Part shown: positions 378-64,000 of the stretch, one piece after another
How positions within the stretch are numbered: position 1 is the first letter of the stretch
Layout: each line of letters begins with the position of its first letter
Assembly: GCA_964573695.1 (NCBI GenBank)
Contig: CAZNKB010000006.1
Coordinates: 8,879-72,878 of the forward strand
Length of the DNA: 64,000 nucleotides
Source of the DNA: an uncultured Gammaproteobacteria bacterium
Lineage (GTDB): Bacteria; Patescibacteriota; Microgenomatia; UBA10105; UBA927
Direction of reading: 5' to 3'
Notes under the pieces: model-generated
The model's input: the letters and a program-made list of their open reading frames with translations, nothing else
Database searches by the model: none
What the model was told of the DNA's origin: nothing
Made by a program: the position numbers and the translations under genes

Positions 378-443
378 ACCCACAGTATAACAATTGACAT
401 CGTTGGGGGCGATACGGTATATACAAAGCAACCATTATCACCT

Positions 444-743: not shown

Positions 744-773
744 ACGACCATTGATCGGGTATCAGCGTTTCAT

Positions 774-2002: not shown

Positions 2003-2076
2003 ATATATAAGTATAGGCAGAGTCTCATGGGTTTCGTCAAGCTGCGGGCACGTTTCCTCTATATTGTGTCAAGGAC

Positions 2077-10179: not shown

Positions 10180-10189
10180 AGGCAGTATT

Positions 10190-45866: not shown

Positions 45867-45905
45867 ATAGATTCAAAGCCAGGCTTTGATGTAGAGGGGA
45901 GGGGT

Positions 45906-46142
45906 ATGGCTCAAGATATAGAAATTGAAGTACAAATGAGAATAAAGAGGAGGATACGCGTTCCCTTGATTGCGGGATTTGCACTGGTGCAACAAGCCGG
46001 ACGCATGAGTCGTATATTTGATATCGGAAAAGCAAGAGCGATAGATATGTATGAAGCAGGAGTAGCGCTCTTGGGGCGTAATCAGGAAGTGCTTGTAGAA
46101 GATGCCAAGGGACGAAAGGTGTTTCGACGACGCAATCGTTAG
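45906..46142 (+). CDS. hypothetical small protein
   Basis: 78 aa ORF. Confidence 0.25.
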   Translation: MAQDIEIEVQMRIKRRIRVPLIAGFALVQQAGRMSRIFDIGKARAIDMYEAGVALLGRNQEVLVEDAKGRKVFRRRNR

Positions 46143-46233
46143 CGTTAAGCACAAATTATGATATGTATTTCAGATAGCTGATATTGTTTGTTATATAAAC
46201 GTCTTTAGATTTTTTTAGTATTACGATGCTTCT

Positions 46234-46506
46234 ATGAGGAGAGGGAAGTGTCTGCCCCAAGGTTTGGACGAGGGCGCCTGCGGTGCCGGAACCCCTGTTA
46301 TAGAACGACCTGCCCGGGTTGTGTTGTCTTGGGGCAGAACATATGAAACGCAGAATTATCGGGTTGACGTGCTGCAAGCATGGTTGGATCGAGGCGATTT
46401 CGCTGATCACGAGCGTGTTTTCGTATGGAAGCATGTCGGGATACTTTGGTGGCGACGAAAAATCGCCCACAGTGTGAAGCCAAGAGATATCCTCGGTATA
46501 AAATGA
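46234..46506 (+). CDS. hypothetical small protein
   Basis: 90 aa ORF. Confidence 0.25.
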   Translation: MRRGKCLPQGLDEGACGAGTPVIERPARVVLSWGRTYETQNYRVDVLQAWLDRGDFADHERVFVWKHVGILWWRRKIAHSVKPRDILGIK

Positions 46507-46640
46507 GATTTTAAGTTATCTATTGATATAGATAATAGTATTTTGCACTAAGAAGATGCCAAAAAATATTTTTACCATATCTTTCTATAATATAAAGATA
46601 TCTTTCGGCCGGGCTCTCGCATAGCTTAGATGTTATCTTC

Positions 46641-46982
46641 GTGATATACTCCCTCCCTAATGGAGTTTGTATGAAAAAGACGTGTGAAAACGCGGGCTGC
46701 ATATTAAATCAGCTTGGAAACTGTTTTGGGGCGAGATTTCTAGGCGAGCAACCGAGCGTGTTGCAAAGTGAGGAGTATTGGCGGGCCAAAGCAGAAGAAG
46801 AAAATAGTCGCAGACGGCAGGCAAATATGGCTCCCGCACAGCCTGATTTTCTTCGGCGTGAGCACATCAAAGATACCCGATATACCTGGCAGGTCGCCAA
46901 GCGCGAACATTGCCGCAGAAGCGATCGTGCATTGGGCAGCGCATTGAGGGCCTACGATGTGATAGCTGCCCCATTTTTATGA
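46641..46982 (+). CDS. hypothetical protein
   Basis: 113 aa ORF. Confidence 0.3.
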   Translation: MIYSLPNGVCMKKTCENAGCILNQLGNCFGARFLGEQPSVLQSEEYWRAKAEEENSRRRQANMAPAQPDFLRREHIKDTRYTWQVAKREHCRRSDRALGSALRAYDVIAAPFL

Positions 46983-46992
46983 CAATTATCCT

Positions 46993-47304
46993 ATGACTAC
47001 AAGAGTCGCCTGTCACCAGGGGAAGGAACGGAGTGTCGCCGTAGCAGGATTATACAGGTCTAAAGGATATGACTATGTATCGTTTTACGGTGGGATAGAG
47101 CGGATGATTACGTTAAGCGTAAGAGAGCTCAGGAGAGAAGTGACGCGAGACGATGACGTCATATTAATCTGTGAACCGTGGAGAGAGTGGGATCCGCAAC
47201 TGAAAGCCGTGGAACAGGCAGAAGAACTTCTCAAGCGCGCCGGCAGACGATATAGTCGATCAACGACAACAGAATTGATGAAGGCTTTGATAGGAAGACG
47301 ATAA
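46993..47304 (+). CDS. hypothetical protein
   Basis: 103 aa ORF, 10 nt after the previous one. Confidence 0.3.
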   Translation: MTTRVACHQGKERSVAVAGLYRSKGYDYVSFYGGIERMITLSVRELRREVTRDDDVILICEPWREWDPQLKAVEQAEELLKRAGRRYSRSTTTELMKALIGRR

Positions 47305-47404
47305 TTTTGTTATAGATGCGTTGATATCATCGAAGCCGTTAGTCACCGCTCAATCCTGTCGAATGGTACTGCGTATCTGAGCGAACGTGAAGTGGTTCGT
47401 GACG

Positions 47405-47650
47405 TTATTTACGAAGTGGTCGTCTTCGGGAGCCTGTGGGCGGACCGAATGCTTCATGTGTTGATTTCGTATACTCGCGCGTTCCATGATCCACCGCAGC
47501 TCCCACGACGCTTTCCATGAGTTTTCGTAATCGGGATCCTGCCCAATTTGTCAGCGCTCGGAATTTTTCCCGAGTAAGAAATCGTTTAGGTTGAGTTGTT
47601 TCGGCTGTCATATAGTCGCGTATGGTATGTTTTTTCCGTGTCAAATGCAA
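47405..47650 (-). CDS. hypothetical protein
   Basis: 81 aa ORF. Confidence 0.3.
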   Translation of the reverse strand: MHLTRKKHTIRDYMTAETTQPKRFLTREKFRALTNWAGSRLRKLMESVVGAAVDHGTREYTKSTHEAFGPPTGSRRRPLRK

Positions 47651-47736
47651 TATGTCTGTAAATCATGCTCCGCAATTGATCTTCGATTCATGGTATAATA
47701 CCAGTCATATCGAGGCAAACGTAAGAAACGTCCGTC

Positions 47737-48948
47737 ATGAGAATTCTATATCTTCAAACGTTTCCGTTTTGGGGAAGCGGCTCAGGCACATACGCACGAC
47801 ATTTGGCGAGCGAAGTGGGTCGTCGTCATAAAGTCGCCATTCTTGCTCCCGACACACGTCCCATTGAGCGAGCTAAGTTGTATTCTGTGGCACTTCCATT
47901 CCCGGTAGCCTTTACCGGGCATCCTGAGTGGCCCGATTGCAAGCTTTATACACAACTTAATAATGACGAAATATACCGGGTTTACAAGGTGCTGCTTGAG
48001 TCTGCGATAGCAGCAGTAGTCGATTTCCGGCCCGATATCATTCATGTTCACCACGCCTTCCCGTTTTCTTGGGCTGCGGCGTTTATCAAGGATTTTTATA
48101 ACATTCCGTACGTAGTGACGATTCATGGATCCGAACTGCCGTCCATGGAAAAAGAGAAACGGTTTATTAGGGCTACATATTATGCGATGTATCGTGCTAA
48201 ACAGATATTTCCGAATTCCGGATATACGAGAGACTGGTTTTTGAGAATTTTCAAGGGAGATTTTCATGAAAAAAGCCGAGTAATCCCCGGGGGTGTGAAC
48301 GTCGACAAATTCATCTATAGCGAGTCGGGCGCGAAATCCGTCGATAAGGAACTCAAGCTACATGGTAAGCCGGTCGTGGTATTTGCCGGAAAACTCACAA
48401 AATACAAAGGAGTAGAGTTCCTCGTCGGGGCGGCAAAAAATATCCATGGGGAAGTCGTCATATTGGGGGACGGTCCGGAAAAACAGCGCTTACAGGAAAA
48501 AGCGAGACAACTGAATTTAACAAATATTCATTGGGTGGGTCATTTGGGTGCAGGGATCAAAAAGCTCGTACCGTATTATTCCCGGGCGGACGTATTTGTA
48601 GCTCCCAGCGTGTGGGACGAGCCGTTGGGGCTCGTCATATTGGAAGCTATGGCATGTCAGACACCAGTTGTGGTTACCAGAAAAGGCGGAATTCCGCTTG
48701 CCGTCAAAGAAGGATATAACGGGCTGTTTGTCCGTGCGCGAAATAGTGCTGAGATCGTCGAGAAGGTCAATAAACTATTAGATAACGCGTCTTTTCGGTA
48801 TAAAATGGGCCAGAACGCACGTAAATCGGTAGAAGAAAAATTCTCCTGGGAAACGATTGCGCATAAATTCGAACTTTCGTATGCCAAATATGCCAAAAAA
48901 TCCAACGGATCGGCGTTTTCCGTGCAAGCACCGGCGGCAAAGAGCTGA
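47737..48948 (+). CDS. GT4 family glycosyltransferase
   Basis: 403 aa. MRILYLQTFPFWGSGSGTYARHL. C-terminal GHLGAGIKKLVPYYSRADVFVAPSVWDEPLGLVILEAMACQTPVVVTRKGG (E-x7-E). Confidence 0.8.
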   Translation: MRILYLQTFPFWGSGSGTYARHLASEVGRRHKVAILAPDTRPIERAKLYSVALPFPVAFTGHPEWPDCKLYTQLNNDEIYRVYKVLLESAIAAVVDFRPDIIHVHHAFPFSWAAAFIKDFYNIPYVVTIHGSELPSMEKEKRFIRATYYAMYRAKQIFPNSGYTRDWFLRIFKGDFHEKSRVIPGGVNVDKFIYSESGAKSVDKELKLHGKPVVVFAGKLTKYKGVEFLVGAAKNIHGEVVILGDGPEKQRLQEKARQLNLTNIHWVGHLGAGIKKLVPYYSRADVFVAPSVWDEPLGLVILEAMACQTPVVVTRKGGIPLAVKEGYNGLFVRARNSAEIVEKVNKLLDNASFRYKMGQNARKSVEEKFSWETIAHKFELSYAKYAKKSNGSAFSVQAPAAKS

Positions 48949-49013
48949 CGTAATATATCGTACATCCAAATACCACACAGACCGTTACAATAAGATTTCT
49001 CTATTATATTACT

Positions 49014-49247
49014 ATGCGTAAAACAACAACCGAAGTTACCGGGTATACCATGTATTATTCTGAGCCAGGTGAACTCGACAAGATTATGGCCCAGGGTCAC
49101 GAGTATGATATTTGTAAAATTGGCTGGACCGGTCCCAACACCGGGGCAAGGCGTGTCGCATTTACATCCGATGAATCAGGAAATCGGAGATTCGAGCGTA
49201 AAATGCGCGCACTCAAATTTGAAATTCAGGACGTATCCGCAGTCTGA
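49014..49247 (+). CDS. hypothetical small protein
   Basis: 77 aa ORF between GT4 genes. Confidence 0.3.
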   Translation: MRKTTTEVTGYTMYYSEPGELDKIMAQGHEYDICKIGWTGPNTGARRVAFTSDESGNRRFERKMRALKFEIQDVSAV

Positions 49248-49294
49248 TTTGTCTTTCAGGTGACTTCTTTTTCCGTTTGACATACACTGGTTGT

Positions 49295-50365
49295 ATGAGA
49301 ATCCTCATATTAGGTTCCGTTGCATTGCCTGTTCCTCCTCCCATGCAGGGAGGTACTGAGCGTATAGCCTATTGGCAGGCTTTGGGGCTTGCCAAGCGCG
49401 GACACCAAGTGACGCTTATCGCAGCGAAGGGATCGAAAAAGGATCCGTCCTACACGCTGGTTGAAATTGGCGGCGGCGATACGGTAACAGGGTCTTCGAC
49501 TCAGTCCACAGTTAACTTTACAGAAGGCTCGCGAGCCATGCGCAAGGAATTGGTGTACATGGCAAACGTTTCCCAGTGGATGTTGGATCACGGGAAAGAA
49601 TTTGATGTAATCCTCAATAACATGCGCGGCGGCGAATCCATGCTGCTTCCTATCGCCAAAAAATTAGGCGTGCAGTTTGCAACCGTGATGCATTTGCCGA
49701 TATTTGCGGAATTAGCCGATGAATTCCGTATATATAACACGCCCGTTATCACTATTAGCAATGCTCAGAAAGAAGGTTTTGACGGACTCAATTACATTGG
49801 CACTGTTTATAACGCTACCGATGTAGAAGAGTTACCATTCCAGGAAAAAGCCGGAGAGTATCTCCTCATGATGGGCAGTATCGCGCCGCATAAAAATCAA
49901 AAAGACGGAATTCTTGCTGCAAAAGCGGTGGGTCAAAAAATTATTCTGGCCGGTAAAATCGGGAATCAAACCTATTGGGAGAGTGAGGTGGCTCCGCTTG
50001 TGGACGGAACAACGGTGATACACAAAGGCGAAATGGGGATAGCGGAAAAGGCAGCTTTACTGGGTAACGCCCAAGCCTTGTTATTCCCGATTGTCTGGCC
50101 GGAACCGTTCGGACTCGTCATGATAGAGGCATTGGCGACGGGCACACCTGTGGTCGCGTACGGTAACGGCGCTGTTTCGGAGGTTGTTACGGACGGAAAA
50201 ACGGGCTTTATCGTCGATCAGTCACAAGGTGTTGGGGGGCTGGCCGTCGCTACCAAACGAGTTGGAGAAATCAATCGGGCCGATTGTCGTGCCGATGTGG
50301 AGAAGAGATTCACGATAGAAAAAATGATAGAAAGCCTCGAAGTAGCACTCCGGACCGTTGCGTAG
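49295..50365 (+). CDS. GT4 family glycosyltransferase (paralog 1 of 3)
   Basis: Start set to ATG 49295 (MRILILGSVALPVPPPMQGGTERI), which matches the paralog N-termini. The track start at 49277 is a TTG. C-terminal FPIVWPEPFGLVMIEALATGTPVVAYGNGAVSEVV. Confidence 0.8.
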   Translation: MRILILGSVALPVPPPMQGGTERIAYWQALGLAKRGHQVTLIAAKGSKKDPSYTLVEIGGGDTVTGSSTQSTVNFTEGSRAMRKELVYMANVSQWMLDHGKEFDVILNNMRGGESMLLPIAKKLGVQFATVMHLPIFAELADEFRIYNTPVITISNAQKEGFDGLNYIGTVYNATDVEELPFQEKAGEYLLMMGSIAPHKNQKDGILAAKAVGQKIILAGKIGNQTYWESEVAPLVDGTTVIHKGEMGIAEKAALLGNAQALLFPIVWPEPFGLVMIEALATGTPVVAYGNGAVSEVVTDGKTGFIVDQSQGVGGLAVATKRVGEINRADCRADVEKRFTIEKMIESLEVALRTVA

Positions 50366-50441
50366 GTGATTTTTGGTTTTCCTTGTTTGTCCCCTTTGTG
50401 GTACGATCGGGGCTCCGTTTAGAAGTGGGTATACGTAAGCT

Positions 50442-50660
50442 ATGCACGAACGAAAGCGTCTTCATTTGCTGACTGGCCTCATGCGCAGAGTGGAAGAGTT
50501 TGAGGAAGAAGCTGTGGACATTGAGGTATTTCTTGGTGGAGAGTGGAAAGCCCGGGTTATGGTGCTGCCGCGTTGGCAGATAGAGATTATGCAGCGACGC
50601 GGCGTATATCACATGACTGATGATGATAAAGAAGAAATTCAGGTCCGGTTAGCCTCGTAG
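50442..50660 (+). CDS. hypothetical small protein
   Basis: 72 aa ORF. Confidence 0.3.
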   Translation: MHERKRLHLLTGLMRRVEEFEEEAVDIEVFLGGEWKARVMVLPRWQIEIMQRRGVYHMTDDDKEEIQVRLAS

Positions 50661-50711
50661 TTAAGGTAAGCGCATTCATCAGTATCCAAATCTACATGGT
50701 ATGATGAATAT

Positions 50712-51752
50712 ATGAAGATTGCAGTTCTTGCCCCTCCGTATTTACCAGTGCCTCCGCCACTTTACGGCGGAACAGAAAAAATAGTCTCGCTTTTGACGGA
50801 AGGATTAGTCGACCAGGGCCATGATGTGACGTTGTTTGCAAGCGGAGATAGTGTCACCCACGCGAAGCTATCGAGTATGTTTCCCACCGCATTAGGTAAC
50901 AGCGGGCTTACCAAAGGAAATACGGATAAGCCATTGGCGCATTACCACGCGTGTTATGCTAGAGCTGACGAATTCGATGTCATTCACAGCCACGGCCAGT
51001 ATCTGAGTTTGCCGGAAGCTTCAACGATCAAAACACCTGTTGTATTTACTTGGCATGGATCATTTTATCCGGGAGAAACAACGGAGGAAAAGCGGGAGAT
51101 ACTCAAAAAATACAAACATCTTAATTATATTTCCATTTCCAACAATCAACGTGCTGGTTTAGCTGATCTTCATTATGTAGCGACGGTATATAACGCACTG
51201 GATATAGCGGAGTATCCGTTTATTCCTGCCCCGGGCGATTATCTCCTCTGGATCGGTAGGGTGAATCCCAAAAAAGGTGCTCTGGATGCCATACAGGCCG
51301 CGAAACGGCTGGGTATACGGCTGGAAATGGCCGCTGCTATCGATCCCATTGATCACCAGTATTTTGAAGAAACGATTAAACCACATATTGACGGCGAACG
51401 TGTCGTATTCCACGGAGAGATAGGACATAGTGCTCTCGTCGAATTATATGGAGGAGCGCTTGCCACGCTATATCCTATTTCCTGGCATGAACCGTTTGGA
51501 CTCGTTATGGCCGAGAGCATGTCGTGCGGGACTCCTGTGATTGCCTATAACGTGGGGTCGGTACCGGAAATAGTACGAGATAGATTGACAGGATTTGTTA
51601 TAGATCCGTCTTTGGGAGTTGAGGGACTTGTAGATGCGGTCAAAAAGCTAGATACCATAGATCGATCTCGCTGCAGGAAACACACCGAGGCATATTTTCA
51701 TAAAGACAGAATGGTCAGAGATTATGAAGCGGTCTATGAGGCGCTGCTATGA
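50712..51752 (+). CDS. GT4 family glycosyltransferase (paralog 2)
   Basis: 346 aa. MKIAVLAPPYLPVPPPLYGGTEKI. YPISWHEPFGLVMAESMSCGTPVIAYNVGSVPEIV. Confidence 0.8.
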   Translation: MKIAVLAPPYLPVPPPLYGGTEKIVSLLTEGLVDQGHDVTLFASGDSVTHAKLSSMFPTALGNSGLTKGNTDKPLAHYHACYARADEFDVIHSHGQYLSLPEASTIKTPVVFTWHGSFYPGETTEEKREILKKYKHLNYISISNNQRAGLADLHYVATVYNALDIAEYPFIPAPGDYLLWIGRVNPKKGALDAIQAAKRLGIRLEMAAAIDPIDHQYFEETIKPHIDGERVVFHGEIGHSALVELYGGALATLYPISWHEPFGLVMAESMSCGTPVIAYNVGSVPEIVRDRLTGFVIDPSLGVEGLVDAVKKLDTIDRSRCRKHTEAYFHKDRMVRDYEAVYEALL

Positions 51753-52867
51753 GAATCGGACTGTATATTTCACCTTCGCACCGAGTTCCTCCTGACGAAA
51801 AAAGCATCCTGGCTCCTTGGGTGTTGGTCCAACAACTGGCAGACGGCTTGGTCGCAAAGCATCACGATGTGACACTTTTTGCTGCCAAGGGAAGTAACAC
51901 ATCCGCCAAACTTATACACGGAGGGATAGACGCAACGATAAATCGGATTTCGGAGTATGGAGATCATGATGACTACCGGGCGTATGTCATTGCCCAGGAG
52001 CTTGCACTTATGCGCGAGGTCATCGTTTGGGCAAAAGAAGGAAAGCTTGATGTGGTGCATATACACCAACCGGTCGAGCGACTGTATCCTGCTCTTCTGG
52101 CTATGCCGGCTAAGGTGCCTGTTGTCATAACGTTTCATGATCCCATTAATCCCGAGAGGTTTGCAGCCCTCGAAAAGCTTATGGAATTGGGGAATATTCA
52201 TCTGGTTTCACTCTCCAAAGCCCAACAGCATCAGGTGCCATTCCCATTTGCCGGCGTTGTGCCAAACGGCGTAGATACGTCTCGATTTGTGCCCGACGGA
52301 CAGTTGCCGCTTCGTAAGCGCCCGCTACTTATCACCGGACGCATCGTGCCTCAAAAAGGATTCACGGATGCGATAGAAGCTGCTCGCGCCGTTCACATGC
52401 GCCTGATGATTGTCGGGCAGGAATACGAGCAACAGAAAGTGTCCCGCGAATATTTTGAGGGAGAGGTGAAGCCGGCAATAGACGGCAAAAACGTACTTTG
52501 GGAATCCGTCGTAAAACAGGAGCATCTTGTGGGGCATTATCAGACAGCAGCAGCGCTTCTTTTCCCCATACGCTGGGAGGAGCCATTCGGACTGGTTATG
52601 ATAGAGGCTATGGCAACCGGTACGCCCGTGATTGCCTATAATCGGGGATCCGTGCCGGAGATTATCATTGACGGCAAAACCGGGTTTATCGTTGACCCGA
52701 AAGAAGGAGTAAAGGGATTGGTCCAAGCCATTAAACGGATCGATGAGATTGATCGAATGGCCTGCCGTCGTCATGTCGAGCGTTATTTTTCTCTTGCCAC
52801 GATGATCGCGGGTTACGAAGCCGTGTACAAAAAAGTCAGTCGTACGGCAAAACTTCCTGTCAAGTAG
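51749..52867 (+). CDS. GT4 family glycosyltransferase (paralog 3)
   Basis: 372 aa. ATGA overlap with the upstream gene. FPIRWEEPFGLVMIEAMATGTPVIAYNRGSVPEII. Confidence 0.8.
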   Translation: MRIGLYISPSHRVPPDEKSILAPWVLVQQLADGLVAKHHDVTLFAAKGSNTSAKLIHGGIDATINRISEYGDHDDYRAYVIAQELALMREVIVWAKEGKLDVVHIHQPVERLYPALLAMPAKVPVVITFHDPINPERFAALEKLMELGNIHLVSLSKAQQHQVPFPFAGVVPNGVDTSRFVPDGQLPLRKRPLLITGRIVPQKGFTDAIEAARAVHMRLMIVGQEYEQQKVSREYFEGEVKPAIDGKNVLWESVVKQEHLVGHYQTAAALLFPIRWEEPFGLVMIEAMATGTPVIAYNRGSVPEIIIDGKTGFIVDPKEGVKGLVQAIKRIDEIDRMACRRHVERYFSLATMIAGYEAVYKKVSRTAKLPVK

Positions 52868-52907
52868 AGTACATACACGCTTCTATTCTCCGTGCTAAGA
52901 TAAATTC

Positions 52908-54338
52908 ATGCGGGTTTTATTTGTCACCAGTGAGATAGCCACGCTTTATAAGCGGGGGGGGTTGGCTGATGTAAGTTACGCATTGCCGGTATCTCTTTCC
53001 CAATTAGGGGTAAATGTCTCTGTTGCCATGCCATATTATGCCAGCGTAACGACGAAAGGTGTGACCTGTGTCGGGCAATTGGCGATTGATTATGATAGGC
53101 GGCGCGAATTGGTATTTGTGTTTCGGACGCTGCTACCACATTCTCATGTGCGTGCATATCTGTTCCGGCATCCGCTGCTTAATGACTATGATGATGCGCA
53201 CATTGCCGATCGGTTTGCCTTTTTTTCCAAGGCAGTAGCCCAGCTCTCGTTGTATTCGGAAGGTGTACTTGGGGGCCCGTATGACATTATTCACTGCAAC
53301 GACTGGCATACGGCATTGATCCCGATGCTTATCGGAGAGCAGAGTAAGGTAGGATATCGGGAACGGGAAACGATACAATCCCGAAGAGTCAAAACGATCC
53401 TCACCGTGCACAATCTGCTGTATCAGGGGGAGACGGGATTTTCGATTACGCTCAAGCTCGGGTTTCCTAAAACGATATTTCATCCCTTTATGACGCCGCT
53501 TGGTCGGGCAGTGCGACTACTCACCGAAGGATTTGAGTATGCCGATAAAGTGACAACCGTTTCCCCGACGTATGCCAAAGAAATAGCCCGCGGGGTCCAC
53601 GGCAAGCGCGTCGTCGAGGTGTTTAAACGCAGAAAAGACCGAATGATAGGGATACTCAATGGTCTTGATACCAAATTGTGGGATCCAAAAACGGATCCGT
53701 CGCTCCCTGTGCATTATGAAACAAGCTCAGTGGTGCAAGCCAAGCGCGCGATAAAAGAGCAACTACAGAAAGCCCTCCGTCTTCCTGTTTCCCCCGTGCC
53801 TTTGTTCGGATTTGTCGGCCGGTTAGAAAAACGTCAAAAAGGACTTGATCTTATTGCCCGAGTCATTGCAAAGCTTAAGGGAGAAGACTACCAGTTGGTG
53901 CTTTTGGGCACCGGGCAAAAAAAGCTTGTGACTCTGTTTGAAAAGCTTGCCAGTGAGAATGAACATATAGCTTTTGTCCATACGTTTGATGAACGGCTCG
54001 CGCGGCGGATCTATGCCGGAAGCGATGTTATGCTGGTTCCCTCGAAGTTTGAGCCGTGTGGCCTGACACAAATGATTGCCATGCGCTATGGAACATTGCC
54101 CTTGGTGCGTAACACCGGTGGGCTAGCTGATACGGTCAGCGACGGGGAGACCGGTTTCGTATTCGGACCATATACCAGCACCGCACTTGCTGCCAAGATG
54201 AAAGAAGCTATCTTACTTTATCGGGATAATCCGACCAAATTCACTCGAATGATGAAGCACGTTATGCGGGTGGATTTTTCCTGGGCCCACCAGGTTAAGG
54301 AATATATGCGGCTTTATCAGAAGCTTATTTCTTCCTAG
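52908..54338 (+). CDS. glgA: glycogen/starch synthase (GT5)
   Basis: 476 aa. MRVLFVTSEIATLYKRGGLADVSYALP (KxGGL), CNDWHTALIP, GILNGLDTKLWDP, LVPSKFEPCGLTQMIAMRYGTLPLVRNTGGLADTV. Confidence 0.85.
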   Translation: MRVLFVTSEIATLYKRGGLADVSYALPVSLSQLGVNVSVAMPYYASVTTKGVTCVGQLAIDYDRRRELVFVFRTLLPHSHVRAYLFRHPLLNDYDDAHIADRFAFFSKAVAQLSLYSEGVLGGPYDIIHCNDWHTALIPMLIGEQSKVGYRERETIQSRRVKTILTVHNLLYQGETGFSITLKLGFPKTIFHPFMTPLGRAVRLLTEGFEYADKVTTVSPTYAKEIARGVHGKRVVEVFKRRKDRMIGILNGLDTKLWDPKTDPSLPVHYETSSVVQAKRAIKEQLQKALRLPVSPVPLFGFVGRLEKRQKGLDLIARVIAKLKGEDYQLVLLGTGQKKLVTLFEKLASENEHIAFVHTFDERLARRIYAGSDVMLVPSKFEPCGLTQMIAMRYGTLPLVRNTGGLADTVSDGETGFVFGPYTSTALAAKMKEAILLYRDNPTKFTRMMKHVMRVDFSWAHQVKEYMRLYQKLISS

Positions 54339-54457: not shown

Positions 54458-55456
54458 TTATGCTAATGTGTAATACACGCTCCGCCCCCTGCCGCTCGAG
54501 AGAAGGAATCCGAAGGAAACGAGTTTCGTAAGGTCGCGACTTGCGGTAATTTGTGAGATTCGGAATCGTTTTTGGACCTCGCGATTCGTGACTTTTGCTG
54601 ACGGTACATCAAGCAGCATAAGGATATGTTTTTGGCGCTCATTGAGTGACGCAAACGACTGTGTGTGCGTCGCTGTGCGGCCGGCTCGTTCCCGTATATC
54701 CTGAAGCAGGGTCATATATGCCTCGTGTGTTGCCCGGACAAAATATTCTAGCCAAACGGTCATCTGGCCAAGTGAACCAATACTTGTAAGCGCATGGGTA
54801 TAGGCATTGGGATCCCGGGTAAGGGCATATTCCAGATTGAGCATCCCTCGGCAGTCATACCCGTATTTGGCCATGATAAGGCTGCTTGTGAGGAGCGCCA
54901 TGCGCCGGTGCGACTGTTTCTGAATATCAGTATGTGCCGTCGCTGCGTGTGCTACGCCTGCGATAAGAAGCGGATGATCACCGGATTGCGTCTCTATATA
55001 TGCCACGAGTCGCTTAAGGTCGATAGCACTTTCGCGAATTGAGCGGGATATGCGGGAAAACGGAAGCGAAAGCGCGACGCTCATGAGTATTTCCAGGCTA
55101 GCAAGGGTGACAGGTTTGGAGCTCCCGGTCCATTCGTTGCGGATATACGTTAAAGCCTGGCGGTAAAGAAGGGCTTCCTGTTCCATGGGGTGGGGTCTTT
55201 TGGGCGTATTGGATAGCAATCTGTTGAGCTCGACGATCGTCATGGGGATATCGGCTAGCCGAAGGGCAGTCAGGATTCTTCCGGTCGTTGCCAGGTAGCG
55301 AAGTTCAATTTCTCTCCGGGGGGATAAAGGCCAAGAAAGGAGATGGCTGCGATACAGGTCTATATCTTTCGTTTGATTTTGAAGAAACGGCGAAAACGTG
55401 TATGCAATTGGTATTCCCATACAGCTCAAGGAGTAGTTACATTTGGATCGTATCAC
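54458..55456 (-). CDS. Fic-domain-like protein with a degenerate active-site motif and a C-terminal winged HTH
   Basis: 332 aa. GDHPLLIAGVAHAATAH...HRRMALLTSSLIMAKYGY sits where HPFx[DE]GNGR...RLL...GY is expected. C-terminal REVQKRFRISQITASRDLTKLVSFGFL. Assignment is tentative. Confidence 0.4.
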   Translation of the reverse strand: MIRSKCNYSLSCMGIPIAYTFSPFLQNQTKDIDLYRSHLLSWPLSPRREIELRYLATTGRILTALRLADIPMTIVELNRLLSNTPKRPHPMEQEALLYRQALTYIRNEWTGSSKPVTLASLEILMSVALSLPFSRISRSIRESAIDLKRLVAYIETQSGDHPLLIAGVAHAATAHTDIQKQSHRRMALLTSSLIMAKYGYDCRGMLNLEYALTRDPNAYTHALTSIGSLGQMTVWLEYFVRATHEAYMTLLQDIRERAGRTATHTQSFASLNERQKHILMLLDVPSAKVTNREVQKRFRISQITASRDLTKLVSFGFLLSSGRGRSVYYTLA

Positions 55457-55704
55457 GAGGTCTAGAAAAAATCAAAGTATATCTAAGCTTGTTAGTACGG
55501 GAAATATGCGTTTATGTGATAAGAGAACGATAAGATTATGATCTGGTTAGTCCGGTGCTTGACAAGGTGTGAAAAGCAGGCGTACAGTAGATATATAACT
55601 TACACATATTAGTAATAACTGTGAAAGTTATTGGTAAGCACTTGTAAAAACTTGGTTTAATTTCGCATTGGTACGGGCTAAAGGGTTTGGGAGCCTGCCT
55701 GGAC

Positions 55705-57636
55705 ATGCCCAAAACATATACTGTCAAAGAAGTCGCTGATATACTCGGGTTTAGCACGAATAGCATCTACACGTTCCTAAAAGAGAAGCGGATAAAAGGC
55801 GTGCGCGTCGGCAAAGGCCGGTTCCGTATCCCCGAAGAGGAATTAGCACGCATACTCCATATCAGTAAGAAGTCAGCCGCTACAACACCCGCCCCCGTGG
55901 AAGCCCCAGAAGGTGTATCTGCCCCAGTACTCAAGCCCGAAGGCGATGCTGCATTTATTACGTCTCAGAGCTCCTATGAGTCGGGGAAGGCAAATGATGT
56001 CCTTGTACCCAATATTTTTGATTGGTTTGTCGGCTTGGCGTCTCTGATTGCCGGAGTGGGATTATTTTTGTTTAATTCCTCGACCAATTCGCTTGAGGTT
56101 ACACGAACTACTTTGGTTTTTCCTGTTATTCGCGTGGTACTGATCGCCTGCGGATTTGGCGTCATACTAAGCAGTATTTTTGCACAAGGAAGGAATTGGC
56201 ATAGGGTTTTCCTCTATGCGCTTTCCATGCTGGGGTTTGTAAATGCATTCGGACTTGCCCGAAACGGGGATATGGAGGGAGCGTTTTTGTATGGCGGGTT
56301 AGCACTTATCATCGGCGTGACGAATGTCGTTCCCTTTGGGGGAATTGTCTCGATCGGATTGTATGTGACGCTTGTGGCGTTGTTGTATCCGGTGACTATA
56401 GTGTTTTTTCCTAGTGACACACACGTTCAGTTACTCTCTGGGGCACTTCACTTGTCGGCCCCGCTTATGGTCGTGGGGTCATTGATTGTCGGCATTGTGT
56501 TGCCGATTCTTTTTTGGGTGGGATATGCGAGCAATCGCAGGCTTTTCATCGCGACGACTGCTTTGTTGGGACTTGCGGATATGGTTGTCGCTGTTTGGTA
56601 TGCGCACCTGCAACTATGGAGCAGATCGTTTTTTATCATCGTACTCGGATACTTCACAGTGTTCTTACCGCATTGGTGGCCTTTGCAGCAAAAAATTGCA
56701 AGGCGCTACAAGCTTGTGCTGCACGGGTTGTTTTTGGTGATCGGAAGCATATTGGTCATAGCCGTGCTTGTTGTGTATTTGTTGCAGCAAAACCTTTGGA
56801 ACTCGCGGGAAAGTGAATTCGCGAATAAAATAAAAGTAGCGCAGTTGTCGCTAAACAGGGCGGTTGAGTCCGTGCAGGGTTCGCTCACTGTTGCGGCACA
56901 AAATCGTGAATTTACCGATACGTTGGTGAAGAAGGATCTGGAAAAACTGACCGTGTTTGCCAAAATTGTGTATGAGAGTAACCCCAATATCCGCCGGCTC
57001 GTATTTTTGGACAAAGAGGGTGATGGCGTCGCGCTTTATCCATACGGAACATTTGACCAGCCGAATTTATCTTACCGCGATTATTTTACCCAGGCCAAAT
57101 CAACAGGTCGCCCGTATGTCTCAAACGTATTTCAGTCCCAGGCAGATCATGCCGGTCGGTATGTGGTGGTTGTGGCAGTGCCGTTTCAGGATGCCAAGGG
57201 AGATTTTGCCGGAGTCATAACCGGCTCGATTGATTTGCGTCGCGTGGGACTCCAGCTCGCACAGATAGCCGCTGATACTCGCGGAGAGTATTTTGTCGTG
57301 ACCGATGCGAAAGGGGTTATTCTCATTCACCCGGATGAAAAACTTATCGGGACGGACGTCTCTTCCGGTGATCCGATGCTGCGGGGGTTATCGGGGGCTC
57401 CCGGGGTAAACCACGGAATTACTATTGACGCTTCTTACGGTATGGTCGCCTATGCTGATGTGCCGATACTTCGGTGGGTTATAAGCCTGCGGGTGCCGGC
57501 GGAAAACGTATTTGAACTCACCTATGTGAGCATCTGGTATGTCTATGGAACGGTGGTCGTTCTTCTGCTTATTGGTATCTATATTTTTTCCTACGCCAGA
57601 CTAAGAATGGGACAATCGAAAGAAGGCGGGACCTGA
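55705..57636 (+). CDS. Membrane one-component regulator: N-terminal excisionase/MerR-type HTH, polytopic membrane domain, periplasmic Cache-like sensor domain, C-terminal TM
   Basis: ATG at 55705 is preceded by a GGGAG SD; the track start at 55687 is a [53 protein letters not shown]. ~8 TM helices. A ~260 aa extracytoplasmic domain with Cache-like features ([20 protein letters not shown]...VVVVAVPF). Terminal TM. Its stop overlaps the next start (TGATGA). Confidence 0.65.
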
Positions 57637-58403
57637 TGAACAAAACTTCCATAAGACCAGAGAAACAACAGAAATCCGCAGTCAGCGGATTTCTCGCTGT
57701 AAAGGGTTTTGGGCCATTCGGCCGATTGTCATTAATCGGCGGCTTTTCGCCGATCATGCCGTTTCTTTTTGCTGTCGTTATCGGAGGATTGGGATTTGTG
57801 TTATTTGAAGCGTTTCGTTTGAGTAGTACGGGTTTGGTAAAAAAGAGTCAGGATCAGATAGCATCACCAATCATTAACCGCTTGACGGAGAAGGTGATTT
57901 CGGAAAGCACATGGATACGTCCGTTTATCGTATTGGTCCAGCGAGCCGATGGATCGTTTGCGTATGCCTATGTAGAAAACGCCGTAGTAAAAAATGATGC
58001 GTTTGTCGGAGATGTGACCATTCGCTATACCAATGGTGAGCGCGGGATCGTGCATGACGAGAACGGATACTTCCGGTTTTTCCTGACAAAGCAGGGTAGC
58101 CAGGAATCGGTGAGAATTCTGGTGCCGATCATTACGGGTATCAGATTGCCCGACGATACAATCATCCTGGCGCAATTTTCTGACGGTACAATTATAGACG
58201 AACAGTTTGTGGGGCCGTTTTCGGCCCTCACTGTGCTTGAGAAATTGCAAATTACGGGAACCCGCTCGGCTCAGGGCGGATACATCACCATAACAGTTAA
58301 CCCGACGCTCAAGTCTGTTGATACAGGTGTGGCGCTCATAGAGCGTGAGATTTTGAAAATGGCCCTTTCTGCAATGGGTCACACAGACAGCGTGTTGGGG
58401 GTA
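57636..58403 (+). CDS. membrane-anchored hypothetical protein (N-terminal TM, ~200 aa extracytoplasmic domain)
   Basis: 255 aa ORF, verified codon by codon in frame 0 ([60 protein letters not shown]...). Not in the supplied track. Ends at TAA 58401-58403, in the same frame as the collagen-like ORF. Confidence 0.5.
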
Positions 58404-58472
58404 ACGACAGATACGCCGGGGATCGATAAACCTCTTAACTTGCCGATATTATCATCGAGCATTGGTACGAAT

Positions 58473-61400
58473 ATGCTGATCCAACGGTTTGAAGGAGAAG
58501 GAGTGGTTCGTATTGTTCCACAAAGTAACAATATAGATCAATCTATAACAAACATACAAAATCTGAATCCTTCGTTTGATACCACGACAATCAACCAGTC
58601 ATCACAGCTTGCGTCCAATCAGGGATTTTATCCTTCTTTATATAGTGGGGGCGCAGGAACAACCGGTGTGACCGGAGCGACAGGCGCTACTGGCATACAG
58701 GGAGCAAAAGGGGATTCCGGAGCAAAAGGAGCACAAGGATCCAATGGAGTCGACGGACCAACGGGAGCGACGGGAACTGGTGAGTTGGGGCCGATTGGTC
58801 CGACAGGAGCAACAGGGTCAGGCGGTGGAGGTGGTGGCGGAGGTGGCGCAGACGGACCAACGGGAGCAACAGGGGCGACCGGAGGAATTGGTGCAAGCGG
58901 ACCAACAGGGTCTACAGGAGCAACTGGTGCCAATGGCCCCACAGGATCGACCGGAGTCACCGGAACACAAGGTGCTTCCGGCCCGACCGGTTCAACTGGT
59001 GCCACAGGTGGAGTCGGGGCCTCCGGTCCAACGGGTTCGACAGGAGCGACTGGCAGTGTAGGAACAACTGGTCCTACTGGTTCGACAGGAGCGACGGGAT
59101 CACAGGGTGCATCAGGTCCCACTGGTTCCACAGGTTCCACAGGTGGAGTTGGTGCATCAGGTCCAACGGGAAGTACGGGATCCACTGGCTTGCTTGGCGC
59201 ATCAGGCCCGACTGGTTCTACTGGAGTACAAGGCTCTTCCGGTCCCACTGGATCAACCGGTGCGACCGGTTCGCAAGGTGCTTCCGGTCCGACAGGGTCT
59301 ACAGGAGCAACGGGTGGAGTTGGTGCAAGCGGCCCGACGGGAAGTACTGGGGCAACAGGAGGCGTTGGATCGAGTGGTCCGACTGGTGCTACCGGATCAA
59401 CGGGAGCAACTGGTTTACAGGGATCTTCAGGTCCCACCGGATCTACAGGTACAACAGGTCAAGGTGGTCCGACTGGTGCCACAGGTCCTACCGGCTCTCA
59501 AGGGGGAGCCGAAGGCGCACCAGGTCCTACTGGCTCAACCGGAGCAACTGGGAGTGTAGGTGCATCAGGCCCGACGGGTAGCACCGGTGCCACTGGAGGA
59601 ATTGGAGCCAGCGGCCCGACAGGATCTACAGGTGCAACCGGAACGCTGGGAGCAAGTGGACCAACGGGAAGTACGGGATCCACTGGCTCACAAGGAGCAA
59701 GTGGTCCTACCGGCCCAACAGGAAGCACAGGATCTACGGGAGGCGATGGTGCCTCGGGCCCAACCGGTACAACCGGATCTACCGGTACTCAAGGAACAAG
59801 CGGTCCGACGGGTTCAACAGGTGCAACAGGTTCTCAAGGTGCATCAGGTCCTACCGGAGCAACTGGCGCCACGGGTACCAATGGCCCAACAGGATCAACA
59901 GGCGCTACTGGTGGAGTTGGCGCAAGTGGACCTACAGGCGCAACAGGAGCAACTGGAACACAAGGAAATCCAGGAATTGACGGAGCAAATGGTCCTACAG
60001 GTTCTACAGGAGCAACTGGTGCAAATGGAGCAAATGGTCCTACAGGTTCTACAGGAGCAACTGGTGCAAATGGAGCAAGCGGACCGACAGGTTCAACAGG
60101 TGCGACTGGAACTCAAGGGGCAAGCGGTCCAACGGGTTCAACTGGCACCACTGGAACCAATGGTCCAACGGGTTCGACAGGAGCAACAGGAGGCGTTGGT
60201 GCATCAGGCCCGACGGGAAGTACTGGGGCAACAGGAGTGCAAGGAGCTTCGGGTCCGACAGGAAGTACCGGAGCTACAGGTGGAGTCGGAGCCAGTGGCC
60301 CGACAGGATCTACCGGCGCAACTGGTTCACAGGGGTCTTCCGGCCCAACCGGAAGTACCGGAGCTACAGGTGGAGTCGGAGCCAGTGGCCCGACAGGATC
60401 AACGGGAGCTACAGGTTCAGTAGGGCAACAAGGTGCTTCAGGTCCGACTGGTTCTACTGGATCCACAGGAACAAATGGAGCATCCGGTCCGACCGGATCA
60501 ACGGGAGCAACCGGCGTAAATGGAGCGAGCGGACCCACTGGTTCAACGGGAGCTACTGGGTCTCAAGGATCTTCTGGTCCAACAGGATCAACAGGAGCTA
60601 CTGGTGGAGTTGGAGCCAGTGGCCCGACCGGATCAACCGGATCAACAGGTACTCAAGGGGGTGTTGGCGCATCAGGTCCAACGGGAAGTACAGGGGTAAC
60701 GGGAAGTAACGGTCCAACTGGTTCTACGGGAGCGACCGGAAATGCAGGAGAAAATGGTCCGACAGGTAGTACGGGAGCAACTGGTGGCATCGGTGCATCA
60801 GGCCCAACTGGCTCAACCGGCGCGACTGGAATACAAGGAGCTAGTGGCCCAACTGGAAGTACGGGTGCTACAGGATTTCAAGGAGCGAGTGGGCCTACCG
60901 GATCTACTGGCGCTACAGGTGAAGTTGGTACGTCAGGCCCGACTGGTTCAACTGGCTCTACCGGCGCAAATGGACCTACTGGTTCTACTGGGGCAACAGG
61001 TTCCCAGGGAGTAAGTGGGCCTACGGGCTCCACTGGTTCTACCGGAGGAGTTGGTGCTTCTGGTCCGACTGGTTCTACTGGTGCTACGGGAACGCAAGGT
61101 GCCTCCGGACCCACAGGAAGCACCGGGGCTACCGGAAATGCAGGAGAAAATGGTCCGACCGGGAGTACGGGAGGAACTGGAGCGGTTGGCGCCAGTGGTC
61201 CCACAGGCTCTACCGGGGCTACTGGTTCTGTTGGAGCGAGTGGTCCAACAGGAAGTACCGGATCCACTGGGGTTCAGGGAGCATCCGGTCCTACCGGTTC
61301 CACTGGGGCAACGGGAATTCAGGGAGCGAGTGGTCCGACCGGGAGTACGGGAGCAACAGGAGTTAATGGTGCATCAGGACCAACCGGATCCACAGGAGCA

Positions 61401-64000
61401 ACTGGTGGAGTAGGAGTTACAGGTCCGACGGGAGCAACAGGCTCTACTGGTACGAATGGTCCAAGTGGATCAACAGGGGCTACGGGTGAAGTTGGAGCCA
61501 GTGGTCCAACCGGATCTACTGGCGCTACTGGTATTCAAGGTGCATCAGGACCAACCGGATCTACAGGAGCTACCGGAACACAAGGCGCTTCAGGTCCTAC
61601 GGGAAGTACGGGAGCAACAGGTGGCAATGGTGCATCAGGACCAACCGGATCTACAGGAGCAACGGGTGGCAATGGTGCCTCCGGTCCTACGGGATCAACT
61701 GGGTCAACAGGATCTGCGGGAGTTCAGGGAGCATCTGGTCCCACAGGAAGTACGGGTGCCACCGGTACTGCTGGAGCGACTGGCCCTACCGGTTCCACTG
61801 GGGCAACGGGAGTTCAGGGAGCGAGTGGTCCTACTGGATCTACTGGTGCGACTGGAACACAGGGAGCAAGTGGACCAACCGGAAGTACCGGAGCAACTGG
61901 TGGAATTGGAGCGTCTGGTCCGACCGGATCTACGGGAGCTACCGGAAATGTAGGAGAAAGTGGTCCTACCGGTTCAACAGGTACCACGGGAATCAATGGT
62001 CCGACGGGTTCGACAGGATCTACAGGAAGTGTTGGCTCATCCGGTCCGACTGGATCTACTGGTGCGACAGGAACACAAGGAGCGAGTGGTCCCACCGGAT
62101 CAACAGGAGCTACCGGAACACAAGGTGCTTCAGGTCCTACGGGAAGTACGGGTGCAACTGGCGGTGCTGGAGAGAATGGTCCCACCGGATCAACAGGAGC
62201 TACCGGAACACAAGGTGCCTCCGGTCCCACAGGATCAACCGGGTCAACAGGTGCTCAAGGAAGCGTTGGTGCTTCAGGGCCAACTGGTTCAACAGGAGCC
62301 ACGGGAGTCCAAGGCGCCTCTGGGCCTACTGGCTCAACTGGATCTACCGGTGGTGTTGGTGCATCTGGTCCTACAGGATCTACCGGTGCAACTGGAGTTC
62401 AGGGAGCCTCCGGTCCCACCGGATCGACCGGAGCGACCGGAACGCAAGGAGCAAGTGGTCCAACTGGTGCAACAGGTGCGACTGGCACTCAAGGTGCCTC
62501 CGGTCCAACCGGATCCACAGGTGCTACCGGAGCGAATGGTCCCACCGGATCGACCGGAGCGACCGGAACGCAAGGTGCGTCTGGACCGACTGGTTCTACC
62601 GGTGCCACAGGAATGCAAGGAGCCTCCGGTCCCACAGGAAGTACGGGGGCGACTGGTATTCAAGGAGCGAGTGGTCCCACCGGATCTACTGGCGCTACTG
62701 GTATTCAAGGTGCATCAGGACCAACCGGTTCAACAGGTGCAACTGGTAGCAATGGTGCATCGGGTCCCACCGGATCTACTGGCGCTACTGGTATTCAAGG
62801 TGCATCAGGACCAACCGGGAGTACAGGAGCTACCGGAACACAAGGTGCTTCAGGTCCTACGGGATCGACTGGCGCAACTGGAACACAGGGAGCCTCTGGA
62901 CCTACGGGATCCACAGGAGCTACAGGAATTGCTGGAGTTACAGGTCCGACCGGGGCAACCGGAGCCACGGGAACGGCTGGAGCCAGTGGTCCGACCGGGG
63001 CAACCGGAACAACAGGCGTGCAAGGTCCAACGGGACCTGCAGGTCCAGGCGGAGAAACATTTATTTTGGACGGCGGGGCATACCTTTATCCGAATAATAC
63101 ATACGCGACTGACTTTAATTTTGATGACTTGGTCTTAGGGCTAGACGGAGAGGCAGGAGCGACCATAACTACCAATGATACGAACGAAACGCTTGATATC
63201 AATACCAATGGTACGGGAGCTATCACCATAGGCAGCGGTGCGAGTGCAAAATCGGTAACAATCGGCAACTCGACGACGACATCGAGCGTCGTATTGACAA
63301 AGGGAGCTTCAGGAAATATCACATTTACCGGGTTTGATTGCTCCGGCCTTACCAATGGTGGTGCGCTTACGGCTGACGCCAGCGGAAATATTTCCTGTAG
63401 CAATGACGATGGTGGTGGTGGCTCGACGACGCTGAAAGCTGCGTATGATGCGGATGTCGACGGATCCGACGCGGTGATCCTTATGACATCTACCGACGGA
63501 AGTATTATTTTCCAAACTGTTGCGGGGACGAATTTCCAGGTCGTTGCAACGGCGGCACCCACCGTAGATTTGCAGACAATCACCAATGCCGGTCAGGGAG
63601 TCACCAGTACCTCTGGAGTTGATGGACTATCGATCACCTATGTCCAGTCAACCGACGCCGGAACTATTACAGGGTCTGGGCTTGATATTACGGTGACGCC
63701 GTCTGGCGATGCGGCAGATACTATCCGTGCAATTACCATTAATAATGTGAGCGCAGGATCATCAACGGAAACAGGGCTTTACCTTGGCACCGGGTATGAT
63801 AAAGATATTCAATTTGCCGATCAAACACCGGTCATTCAAGTACCGGACGCGACGACCACGTTCGCTTCTCTCAATTTTCAGAATGCATCCGGCACGGTTC
63901 TGGCTTCGCTCAAGGAGTATTTTGCCGGGGAGAATTATGGTGCGATTGAGTCTGGAGGATTTATCAATATCGACGGAAGTTTCTATATGGATAACTTCAG
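58473..64000 (+). CDS. Giant collagen-like repeat protein (partial, continues beyond the window): short N-terminal region, ~1470 aa of uninterrupted Gly-X-Y triplets ([10 protein letters not shown] type), and a Thr/Asn/Gly-rich fiber-like C-terminal domain
   Basis: Frame 0 is open from 58404 to 64000, checked at multiple points. First ATG at 58473 ([23 protein letters not shown]...), with TTG 58440 as an alternative. GXY from ~58650 to 63053 with a ~15 aa (45 nt) period [15 protein letters not shown]. C-terminal [81 protein letters not shown]... Absent from the track because it has no in-window stop. Frame 1 and the minus frames are also open over the repeat but lack Gly periodicity. Confidence 0.7.
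58650..63053 (+). repeat. Coding tandem repeat array, ~45 nt periodicity (collagen-like G-X-Y)
   Basis: Reiterated variants of GGT CC(N) AC(N) GG(N) TC(N) AC(N) GG(N) GC(N) AC(N) GG(N) ... spanning ~4.4 kb. Confidence 0.8.

Follow-up and report, generated by a model that had tools for sequence, protein, structure and literature searches.

A gene for a putative membrane-anchored collagen-like surface fibre in a Gottesmanbacteria-like member of the Patescibacteria

The 64,000-nt stretch of DNA analysed here (contig CAZNKB010000006.1, positions 8,879 to 72,878; below, the window) comes from an ultra-small, uncultivated, Gottesmanbacteria-like member of the Patescibacteria, the Candidate Phyla Radiation (CPR). 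Its right-hand end carries a collagen-like gene. The product is probably an adhesin that is anchored in the membrane, stands on a collagen stalk, and assembles from three identical chains into a very long surface fibre. The visible part of the protein comprises a short basic tail, a single transmembrane (TM) helix, a conserved N-domain, a stalk of 489 Gly-X-Y (G-X-Y) triplets, and the start of a non-collagen head (Table 1). Related loci and proteins are given below by their L and P numbers where they have to be told apart.

The stalk matches the Pfam family Collagen (PF01391) with 569.5 bits against a cutoff of 27.2 (E=1.6e-175). The Y positions hold 60% Thr and 15% Ser, so that the original prediction of a giant Thr/Ser-rich collagen-like protein is borne out. 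A regular-expression census finds the 489 triplets in 4,413 nt. The predicted number of about 490 is therefore right, but their supposed continuity is not, as three breaks of 1-2 residues divide them into runs of 15, 7, 73, and 394 triplets. The 45-nt periodicity that had been described over about 4.4 kb is found again by Tandem Repeats Finder, with periods of 45 and 90 nt across 58.9-63.0 kb and copies that match only 65-90%. The anchors GPTG[ST]TG have a spacing of 15 amino acids (aa) in 64 of 82 intervals. The commonest of the 489 triplets are GST (99), GPT (97), and GAT (83). Pro occupies 21% of the X positions and is almost confined to them, and only 16 of the 1,471 stalk residues (1.1%) are charged. 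No further G-X-Y run of 8 or more triplets occurs in any of the six frames of the whole window. If a triple helix forms, its canonical rise of 0.286 nm per residue would give a stalk of about 420 nm. This is about 1.45 times the helix of vertebrate fibrillar collagen, in a stalk that is Thr-based, nearly free of charge, and poor in Pro.

Surveys record bacterial collagen-like chains of up to about 6,000 aa as well as Thr-rich triplets, and collagens fold as a C-to-N zipper (PMC11923368). Work cited in the same article describes (Gly-Pro-Thr)10 as a random coil unless it is glycosylated (PMC11923368). The GPT collagen-like region of BclA3 is O-glycosylated by SgtA (PMC7157674). Glycosylation of Thr is proposed for the present stalk because (Gly-Pro-Thr)10 needs glycans to fold and because the BclA3 region is modified in this way; O-glycosylation is plausible from the composition.

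The collagen-like frame is real, and the stalk repeats are old and diverged. When 64 of the 45-nt units are compared in register, the mean entropy amounts to 0.39 and 0.38 bits at the first two codon positions and to 1.76 bits at the third, a pattern well outside chance. The units share 66% nucleotide identity versus 84% amino-acid identity, and the conserved Ser positions are encoded by both AGY and TCN codons. Because the third codon position is near saturation while the peptide is conserved, the repeats are held by selection at the protein level, that is, on the frame-0 peptide. No exact direct repeat in the DNA exceeds 56 nt, and just 2 of 4,357 distinct 55-mers recur. Gross collapse or expansion of the repeats is thus unlikely; the exact triplet count could be slightly off.

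The frame holds 1,865 codons and no stop from 58404 to the window end, as had been predicted, but it does not open at 58404. The codon at 58401-58403 is GTA (Val), and the frame is open back to an ATG at 57636, which gives a 6.4-kb open frame with no stop in any of its 2,121 visible codons. The A of this ATG is the final base of the TGA of the upstream gene (an ATGA overlap of one base). The same ATG was chosen for the orthologous gene in independent calls on a Logan contig and two NCBI genomes. The Met at 58473, which had been taken as the start, is internal; a product beginning there would show 1,842 aa instead of 2,121 and would miss the TM anchor and most of the N-domain. The full length of the protein is predicted to be about 2,800-2,850 aa, as extrapolated from its closest relatives: in L009, the closest C-terminal relative, at least 630 aa follow the residue that corresponds to position 64000.

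An exact 50-mer of the window end has no match in genome_contigs or metagenome_contigs. An identical upstream gene is present on only one public contig, Logan SRR14932511 (L001), and that contig stops after about 94 aa of the repeats. Short-read assemblies of other relatives also break, shift frame, or have a gap in the stalk region: L004 and L005, like L001, end within the repeats, L009 is frameshifted, and L010 and L013 contain N gaps. The frame switch in L009 lies at about nt 12245, inside the repeats, where L010 and L013 have gaps of 100 N. These features are probably assembly problems; frameshift phase variation may be an alternative. Long spurious open reading frames (ORFs) are also present in other frames and on the opposite strand at 58628-63586, so that mis-annotation by gene callers is possible.

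The N-terminal tail is predicted to be cytoplasmic. Hydropathy shows a single strongly hydrophobic stretch in the visible protein, the TM helix, which the relatives L008p and L011p also have. Surface anchoring of the fibre through this helix is supported by the sequence. The surface location given in the original prediction agrees with the single N-terminal helix, and also with a post-collagen region that is shared with giant proteins carrying signal peptides. The N-domain is 50-64% identical to P0005-P0007 and to ten related loci, and it has no sequence match in Pfam, PHROG, or PDB. An ORF of 172 aa at 57864-58382 on the minus strand was first taken as a neighbouring gene. It was rejected, being antisense inside the N-domain, Arg/Cys-rich, without matches, and absent from the record.

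The family is rare and cellular, not viral. The N-domain has three protein matches among 5.8 billion clusters; two of them carry a source name, in each case 'Patescibacteria group bacterium'. When each GTDB species is represented by a single genome, a scan gives eight loci, mostly titled Candidatus Gottesmanbacteria or Patescibacteria, and JGI metagenomes add two more to make the ten. Groundwater sites, for example Hainich H41 or nzgw, appear in contig titles. No relative of the N-domain occurs in IMG/VR. Neighbouring genes of the window are chromosomal, comprising MreB, Maf, an M16 peptidase, and GlgA. Two relatives are full-length: L008, with 2,410 aa and 404 triplets on a 191-kb contig, and L011, with 2,867 aa and 546 triplets on a 113-kb contig. 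Both have a matching TM anchor, 54-58% Thr at Y, and about 1% charged residues, while an LPXTG motif and a hydrophobic tail are absent from their ends. In the literature searched, nothing was found that links collagen-like proteins to Patescibacteria/CPR, nor anything on giant CPR adhesins.

Two of the loci, L013 (CAYUKU010000007.1) and L014 (CAZKLT010000007.1), are titled 'uncultured Gammaproteobacteria'. They contain a complete Patescibacteria-type locus with GT4 glycosyltransferase genes, GlgA, a winged helix-turn-helix (wHTH) gene, a gene for a helix-turn-helix (HTH)/dCache protein, and the fibre N-domain. The Gammaproteobacteria label is likely a binning or labelling error. The P0002 locus (L003) is a string of short ORFs on the same strand; it is probably a frameshifted long-read contig and was set aside as uninformative.

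The predicted non-collagen C-terminal stretch does follow the repeats (63060-64000). Its 313 visible residues are rich in Thr, Gly, Ala, Ser, Asp, and Asn and include two Cys; Pfam, PHROGs, and PDB sequence searches give no match for it. A word-based search finds four relatives of the head, and an exhaustive profile search finds 157, of which 28 are at E<1e-30 (P0009 matches the joint profile at 3e-147). Most are giant Patescibacterial proteins of 1,300-2,900 aa with an N-terminal signal peptide, and only a few, e.g., P0012, carry G-X-Y runs. The shared module has about 600 aa, and the 313 aa of the window represent its first half. Beyond the equivalent of the window end, the relatives have, in order, a head domain of about 280 aa, a GADxAE domain, a coil-like linker, a beta domain, and a Pro/Thr/Ser-rich tail. 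The 280-aa domain has no Pfam or PDB match. An earlier guess of a ConA/LamG-like or C1q-like fold for this jelly-roll-looking domain was dropped for that reason.

The invariant motif G-A-D-(L/I/V/M)-(A/S)-E starts a domain of about 150 aa in the relatives; in the full-length ones it reads GAD(L/I/V)AE-Y. In 6 of 17 members this domain resembles Pfam Peptidase_G2 (IMC autoproteolytic), at best with 21 bits against a cutoff of 25 (E 2.5e-4), and is thus sub-threshold. Its profile finds the phi29 gp12 pre-neck appendage in the PDB (3gqh, E=0.0018; 6qz9, E=0.0032), a tailspike chaperone domain at E=0.33, and the tail-fibre family PHROG 19602 at 1.3e-4. In the alignment, the Asp of the motif falls on residue 1 of the solved chain 3gqh_A. 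These matches are individually weak and mutually consistent, and they weakly suggest an autochaperone of the phi29 gp12 type.

The terminal beta domain of the relatives is an H-type lectin (PF09458), with 33.1 bits in L008p and 27.6 bits in L011p against a cutoff of 24. The last domain of L008p is a bacterial SH3 domain (SH3_3), also above threshold at 32.8 bits. L009 and P0008 have a divergent lectin-like copy with an insertion, which in P0008 has no Pfam match. A lectin at the end of the full-length relatives fits the attachment fibre that had been proposed from the window.

The heads are mosaic. The window gene is 68% identical to L009 over all 313 aa and 63% identical to P0008 in the head overlap, is 74% identical to L011 over the first 137 aa only, and barely resembles L008; the GADxAE and lectin regions are common to L008, L009, and L011. 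P0001, on a short contig (L002, nt 1-3376, ENA k141_299172), is 64% identical to the C-terminal region of the window and has an in-frame stop just upstream of the homologous part. The next gene codes for a large serine recombinase (Resolvase, Recombinase, Zn_ribbon_recom), so P0001 may be a head cassette that is silent or mobile, if it is not a simple fragment. P0010 ends in an M23 peptidase (Pfam 81.6 bits, 4.7e-23), and GHDG...GPHLHFG motifs are also present in P0015 and P0022. The giant relatives with M23 ends share the head module and have no collagen stalk; these ends hint at giant surface proteins that act on the wall of another cell.

The collagen gene is, by its sequence, translationally coupled to a gene for an HTH_17/dCache membrane protein. 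This partner lies directly upstream, with overlapping or abutting stop and start codons, in every related locus with upstream sequence, and an identical protein is called on L001. It has an N-terminal HTH_17/excisionase-type DNA-binding domain (Pfam 9.5e-10; NCBIfam excisionase domain), about 8-9 TM helices at aa 99-360, an extracytoplasmic dCache_1 domain (3.5e-18) at aa ~378-599, and a last TM helix at aa 610-628. P0020 (2,827 aa) begins with two MerR/HTH_17 domains and a TM helix, fused to a giant surface protein with the same head module. Such a natural fusion favours the view that the HTH domain and the fibre are functionally linked. The sigma-70-like promoter candidate upstream of the partner is weak, as the region has fewer such sites than its shuffles. 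To our knowledge, CPR promoters are uncharacterised. The divergent 332-aa gene with a C-terminal winged HTH is kept in the gene order, its N-terminal part is uncharacterised, and it may be a second regulator.

The window contains the GT26 gene (45033-45866) and the four GT4 genes (47737-52867) that the original prediction had named, and the GT4 array ends in a fifth such gene, GlgA, which is a genuine ADP-glucose-type glycogen synthase. This block is treated here as context genes, and its link to the fibre is weak. The TagA/TarA-like GT26 protein points to lipid-linked wall-polymer chemistry, and the GT4 genes beside GlgA may serve storage or envelope glycans rather than protein glycosylation. 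By tblastn, all related loci have the gene order GT26, GT4 x4, GlgA, wHTH regulator, HTH/dCache, collagen gene. The order sought in related genomes is thus kept, but it is not independent evidence because all loci are from one lineage. GlgA alone is 67-86% identical across the related loci. GlgA and GT4a together are at 67-90%, as compared to 50-60% for the fibre N-domain, and the glycosyltransferase (GT) and GlgA genes look like housekeeping genes because of this higher conservation. The genes downstream of the fibre gene are unrelated and not conserved, and no GT gene is adjacent to or downstream of it in L008 or L011.

An upstream GT-C operon had also been claimed. It comes down to one AftD-like match, which lies about 50 kb away from the fibre gene and reaches 18 bits where the cutoff is 26. 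Gene clustering likewise gives no support to dedicated glycosylation: the fibre gene is coupled to the HTH_17/dCache gene, and GlgA and the divergent wHTH gene intervene before the array. The second giant gene of the window, at 21675-27617 on the minus strand (1,980 aa), has no Pfam or NCBIfam match and contains linkers rich in Pro, Thr, Glu, and Ala. It was considered as a second fibre and rejected, having no signal or TM start and no similarity to the retrieved proteins.

Table 1. Features of the collagen-like fibre gene and of its surroundings (window coordinates)
Feature	Coordinates	Strand	Basis or remark
Collagen-like fibre gene	57636..64000	+	Open frame; 5' end complete, 3' end cut at window edge; 2,121 codons visible
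Predicted cytoplasmic N-terminal tail, aa 1-38, basic	57636..57749	+	Aligned with P0005, P0006
Predicted single TM helix/signal anchor, aa 39-57	57750..57806	+	Kyte-Doolittle 19-residue mean 2.29
Conserved non-collagen N-domain, aa 58-337 (~280 aa)	57807..58646	+	Family-specific; mostly beta by prediction
Collagen triple-helix-type region, aa 338-1808 (1,471 aa)	58647..63059	+	489 G-X-Y triplets, 15-aa unit
Start of non-collagen distal head, aa 1809-2121+ (313 aa)	63060..64000	+	Post-collagen junction, two-Cys motif, first half of shared module
Operon partner, 643-aa membrane protein	55705..57636	+	Pfam, NCBIfam, hydropathy
Sigma-70-like promoter candidate, TTGACA-18-TACAGT	55559..55588	+	10/12 consensus positions; weak
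332-aa protein, C-terminal winged HTH	54458..55456	-	Divergent from fibre operon; NCBIfam MarR/ArsR-type 2e-5 to 4e-5, sub-threshold
GlgA glycogen synthase	52908-54338	+	TIGR02095, 458 bits vs cutoff 328; ends GT4 array
Four GT4 genes	47737-52867	+	Pfam
GT26 (TagA/TarA-like)	45033-45866	+	Pfam
GT26/GT4/GlgA block	45033..54338		Context genes
'GT-C operon' region	5856-11545	-	966-aa protein with sub-threshold AftD-like GT-C match, then 476-aa unknown, then GT4
Spurious ORF in stalk (example)	58628-59437	-	
Spurious ORF in stalk (example)	59560-60423	+	
Spurious ORF in stalk (example)	61960-63138	+	

The fibre would be built by a Gottesmanbacteria-like cell with a single membrane. Three chains would be exported by Sec in an N-in/C-out orientation, and the C-terminal autochaperone-like domain, last out of the translocon, would nucleate trimerisation. 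The tail-fibre-like head and then the collagen helix would zip from C to N towards the membrane. The resulting rod of about 0.35-0.47 µm, longer than the cell, would hold a glycan-binding, cassette-variable head outward, by which a host cell or surface could be captured. The Thr-rich stalk would probably require O-glycosylation for stability, and the HTH/dCache partner would probably regulate fibre production or sense through the fibre.

Several points weigh against this picture. Trimerisation, export, glycosylation, and binding are all predictions from the sequence. The autochaperone-like and lectin domains lie beyond position 64000 and are assigned to the window gene from its relatives only. 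A hydroxyproline system was not identified, and with about 1% charge and Pro at only 21% of the X positions the unmodified stalk may not be a stable triple helix. The AlphaFold2 (AF2) model of the N-domain, made from 4 sequences, is uninformative (predicted local distance difference test score, pLDDT, of 34.5). If the GADxAE domain cleaves itself as in gp12, the lectin and SH3 domains would be freed, which fits poorly with an adhesin at the tip. The host-binding role also draws on a presumed episymbiosis of Gottesmanbacteria, which is carried over from general knowledge on CPR bacteria.

A more far-reaching proposal makes the fibre and its partner a host-contact sensor, in which binding or tension at the tip is relayed at the membrane to the DNA-binding protein and switches the cell between free and attached states. 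The fibre would be a bacterial transmembrane collagen, with folding nucleated by an autochaperone of the phage tail-fibre type. This proposal is speculative, and its chance of being right is slim.

It is doubtful that the neighbouring GT26/GT4 array and the upstream GT-C protein belong to a dedicated glycosylated-filament cluster and O-glycosylate this fibre specifically. GT4 enzymes can O-glycosylate Ser/Thr-rich repeat adhesins, as GtfA/B do with the streptococcal serine-rich repeat proteins, and the gene order is kept in all related loci. The stalk, with 60% Thr and 15% Ser at Y and almost no charge, also has a composition that is known to be glycan-stabilised or decorated (PMC7157674, PMC11923368). 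However, the collagen gene belongs to a separate transcription unit, the GT26 points to wall polymers, and the housekeeping-like conservation of GlgA and GT4a is seen in loci that are all from one lineage. To this are added the intervening GlgA and wHTH genes, the distant sub-threshold GT-C match, and the lack of an adjacent or downstream GT in L008 and L011. The G-X-Y region might instead stay flexible, with no triple helix at all, and act as an entropic spacer or as a Ser/Thr-rich, possibly mucin-like tether between the membrane anchor and the head. Helix stabilisers are sparse (21% Pro at X, about 1% charge, no hydroxyproline), and no trimerisation domain is seen within the window. The random coil of unglycosylated (Gly-Pro-Thr)10, in the work cited by PMC11923368, agrees with such a tether. 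This reading is nonetheless unlikely: Gly stands at every third residue over 1,471 residues with three small breaks, despite saturation of codon position 3, and a disordered linker is disfavoured because it would not need so strict a Gly constraint. Relatives with N-domains that are 50-57% identical keep the same pattern over 404-546 triplets, and their C-terminal domain resembles the autochaperones of trimeric fibres.

The protein might also be a structural component of the envelope, such as a hair-like nap, a spacer layer, or a biofilm or cell-cell matrix fibre, and not a host-targeting adhesin. Its composition is BclA-like, its orientation is that of BclA, which has a proximal N-terminus and a distal globular C-terminal part, and its stalk length varies among relatives (404-546 triplets) much as BclA shows length polymorphism. 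Lectin and SH3b domains in the full-length relatives, M23 in some of the more distant giants, and mosaic cassette heads speak for ligand recognition instead. A bulk coat also agrees poorly with the coupling to a sensor/regulator-type protein, which suggests that expression is low and regulated. Typical cells of these bacteria are smaller in diameter than a 0.4-µm rod is long, and an envelope role is accordingly given a small chance. A prophage or phage tail-fibre gene is most improbable. Collagen-like segments, an autochaperone-like C-terminus, and an H-type lectin are typical of phage fibres, but the present protein has an N-terminal TM anchor, its flanks are chromosomal without phage genes among the annotated neighbours, its position is the same in all related loci with flanks, and its N-domain has no relative in IMG/VR and no PHROG match. 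Equally hard to credit is an assembly artefact or a decaying pseudogene. The short-read assemblies L001, L004, L005, L009, L010, and L013 do break, shift, or have gaps here, but the repeats are diverged with none exact beyond 56 nt, all 2,121 codons are free of stops, and two relatives are intact from end to end.

The proposed adhesin fibre shares several features with known systems. Like BclA and BclA3 of the Bacillus anthracis group and Clostridioides difficile, it has a GXT-dominated region (GPT, GST, GAT) with a stalk of variable length. A homotrimeric filament with a proximal N-terminus and a distal non-collagen C-terminus is also expected. Thr O-glycosylation is documented for that class (PMC7157674). 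In contrast, the stalk of the window protein is 5-25 times longer (489 triplets versus tens in BclA). It has an N-terminal TM anchor and no exosporium-targeting motif, belongs to the Patescibacteria and not to a spore former, and has a C-terminal region without Pfam or PDB sequence similarity; the C-terminal domain of BclA is a C1q/TNF-like globular trimerisation domain. While sgtA is immediately upstream of bclA3, no GT gene adjoins the window gene. Streptococcal Scl proteins have a C-terminal LPXTG sortase anchor and a distal, variable N-terminal domain, whereas the anchor is N-terminal here, and L008p and L011p have no LPXTG. The collagen-like proteins of Pasteuria, e.g., Pcl7, are surface fibres of an obligately host-dependent bacterium and have been proposed as polymorphic attachment adhesins (PMC10987987). 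They differ in being spore-surface proteins, much shorter, and with different heads, and no sequence relationship outside the G-X-Y repeats has been looked for or seen.

The phage fibres phi29 gp12 and HylP, the latter a hyaluronidase of a streptococcal phage, resemble the order in the relatives, where the head is followed by a gp12-autochaperone/Peptidase_G2-like domain and then by the H-type lectin; HylP also has a collagen segment. The present fibre differs, being membrane-anchored, chromosomal, and 3-8 times longer. The similarities are weak or sub-threshold, and Ala, not Ser, precedes the aligned Asp. The module of about 600 aa is also found in the giant Patescibacterial surface proteins (P0009-P0016 and others), together with the GADxAE domain, the lectin-like domain, and the Pro/Thr-rich tail. 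In these proteins, the TM anchor, N-domain, and collagen stalk are replaced by a signal peptide that looks cleavable, an 'INFQGKVVN' N-domain, and beta-rich repeats. Type II transmembrane collagens and receptors of eukaryotes (collagens XIII/XVII, MARCO, SR-A) have a cytoplasmic tail, a single TM helix, a collagen rod, and a distal ligand end. Their resemblance to the window protein is an architectural analogy without homology, and the eukaryotic proteins rely on hydroxyproline. They fold from N to C from a membrane-proximal coiled coil, while a C-terminal nucleus is expected for the window fibre.

The length and composition of the stalk are not new by themselves (PMC11923368). Four points appear to be new: the Patescibacteria/CPR lineage, the anchoring by a type II TM helix, a collagen stalk fused to the head/autochaperone-like/lectin module of giant Patescibacterial surface proteins, and the conserved coupling to an HTH/dCache protein. 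Beyond a few cultivated Saccharibacteria, little is understood of how CPR/Patescibacteria find their partner cells and attach to them. The locus is a testable attachment candidate, with a rod longer than the cell, a swappable lectin-bearing head, and a dedicated membrane sensor/regulator partner. The combination of a Thr-based stalk with an apparent C-terminal folding nucleus of the phage-fibre type could also aid the engineering of long recombinant collagens.

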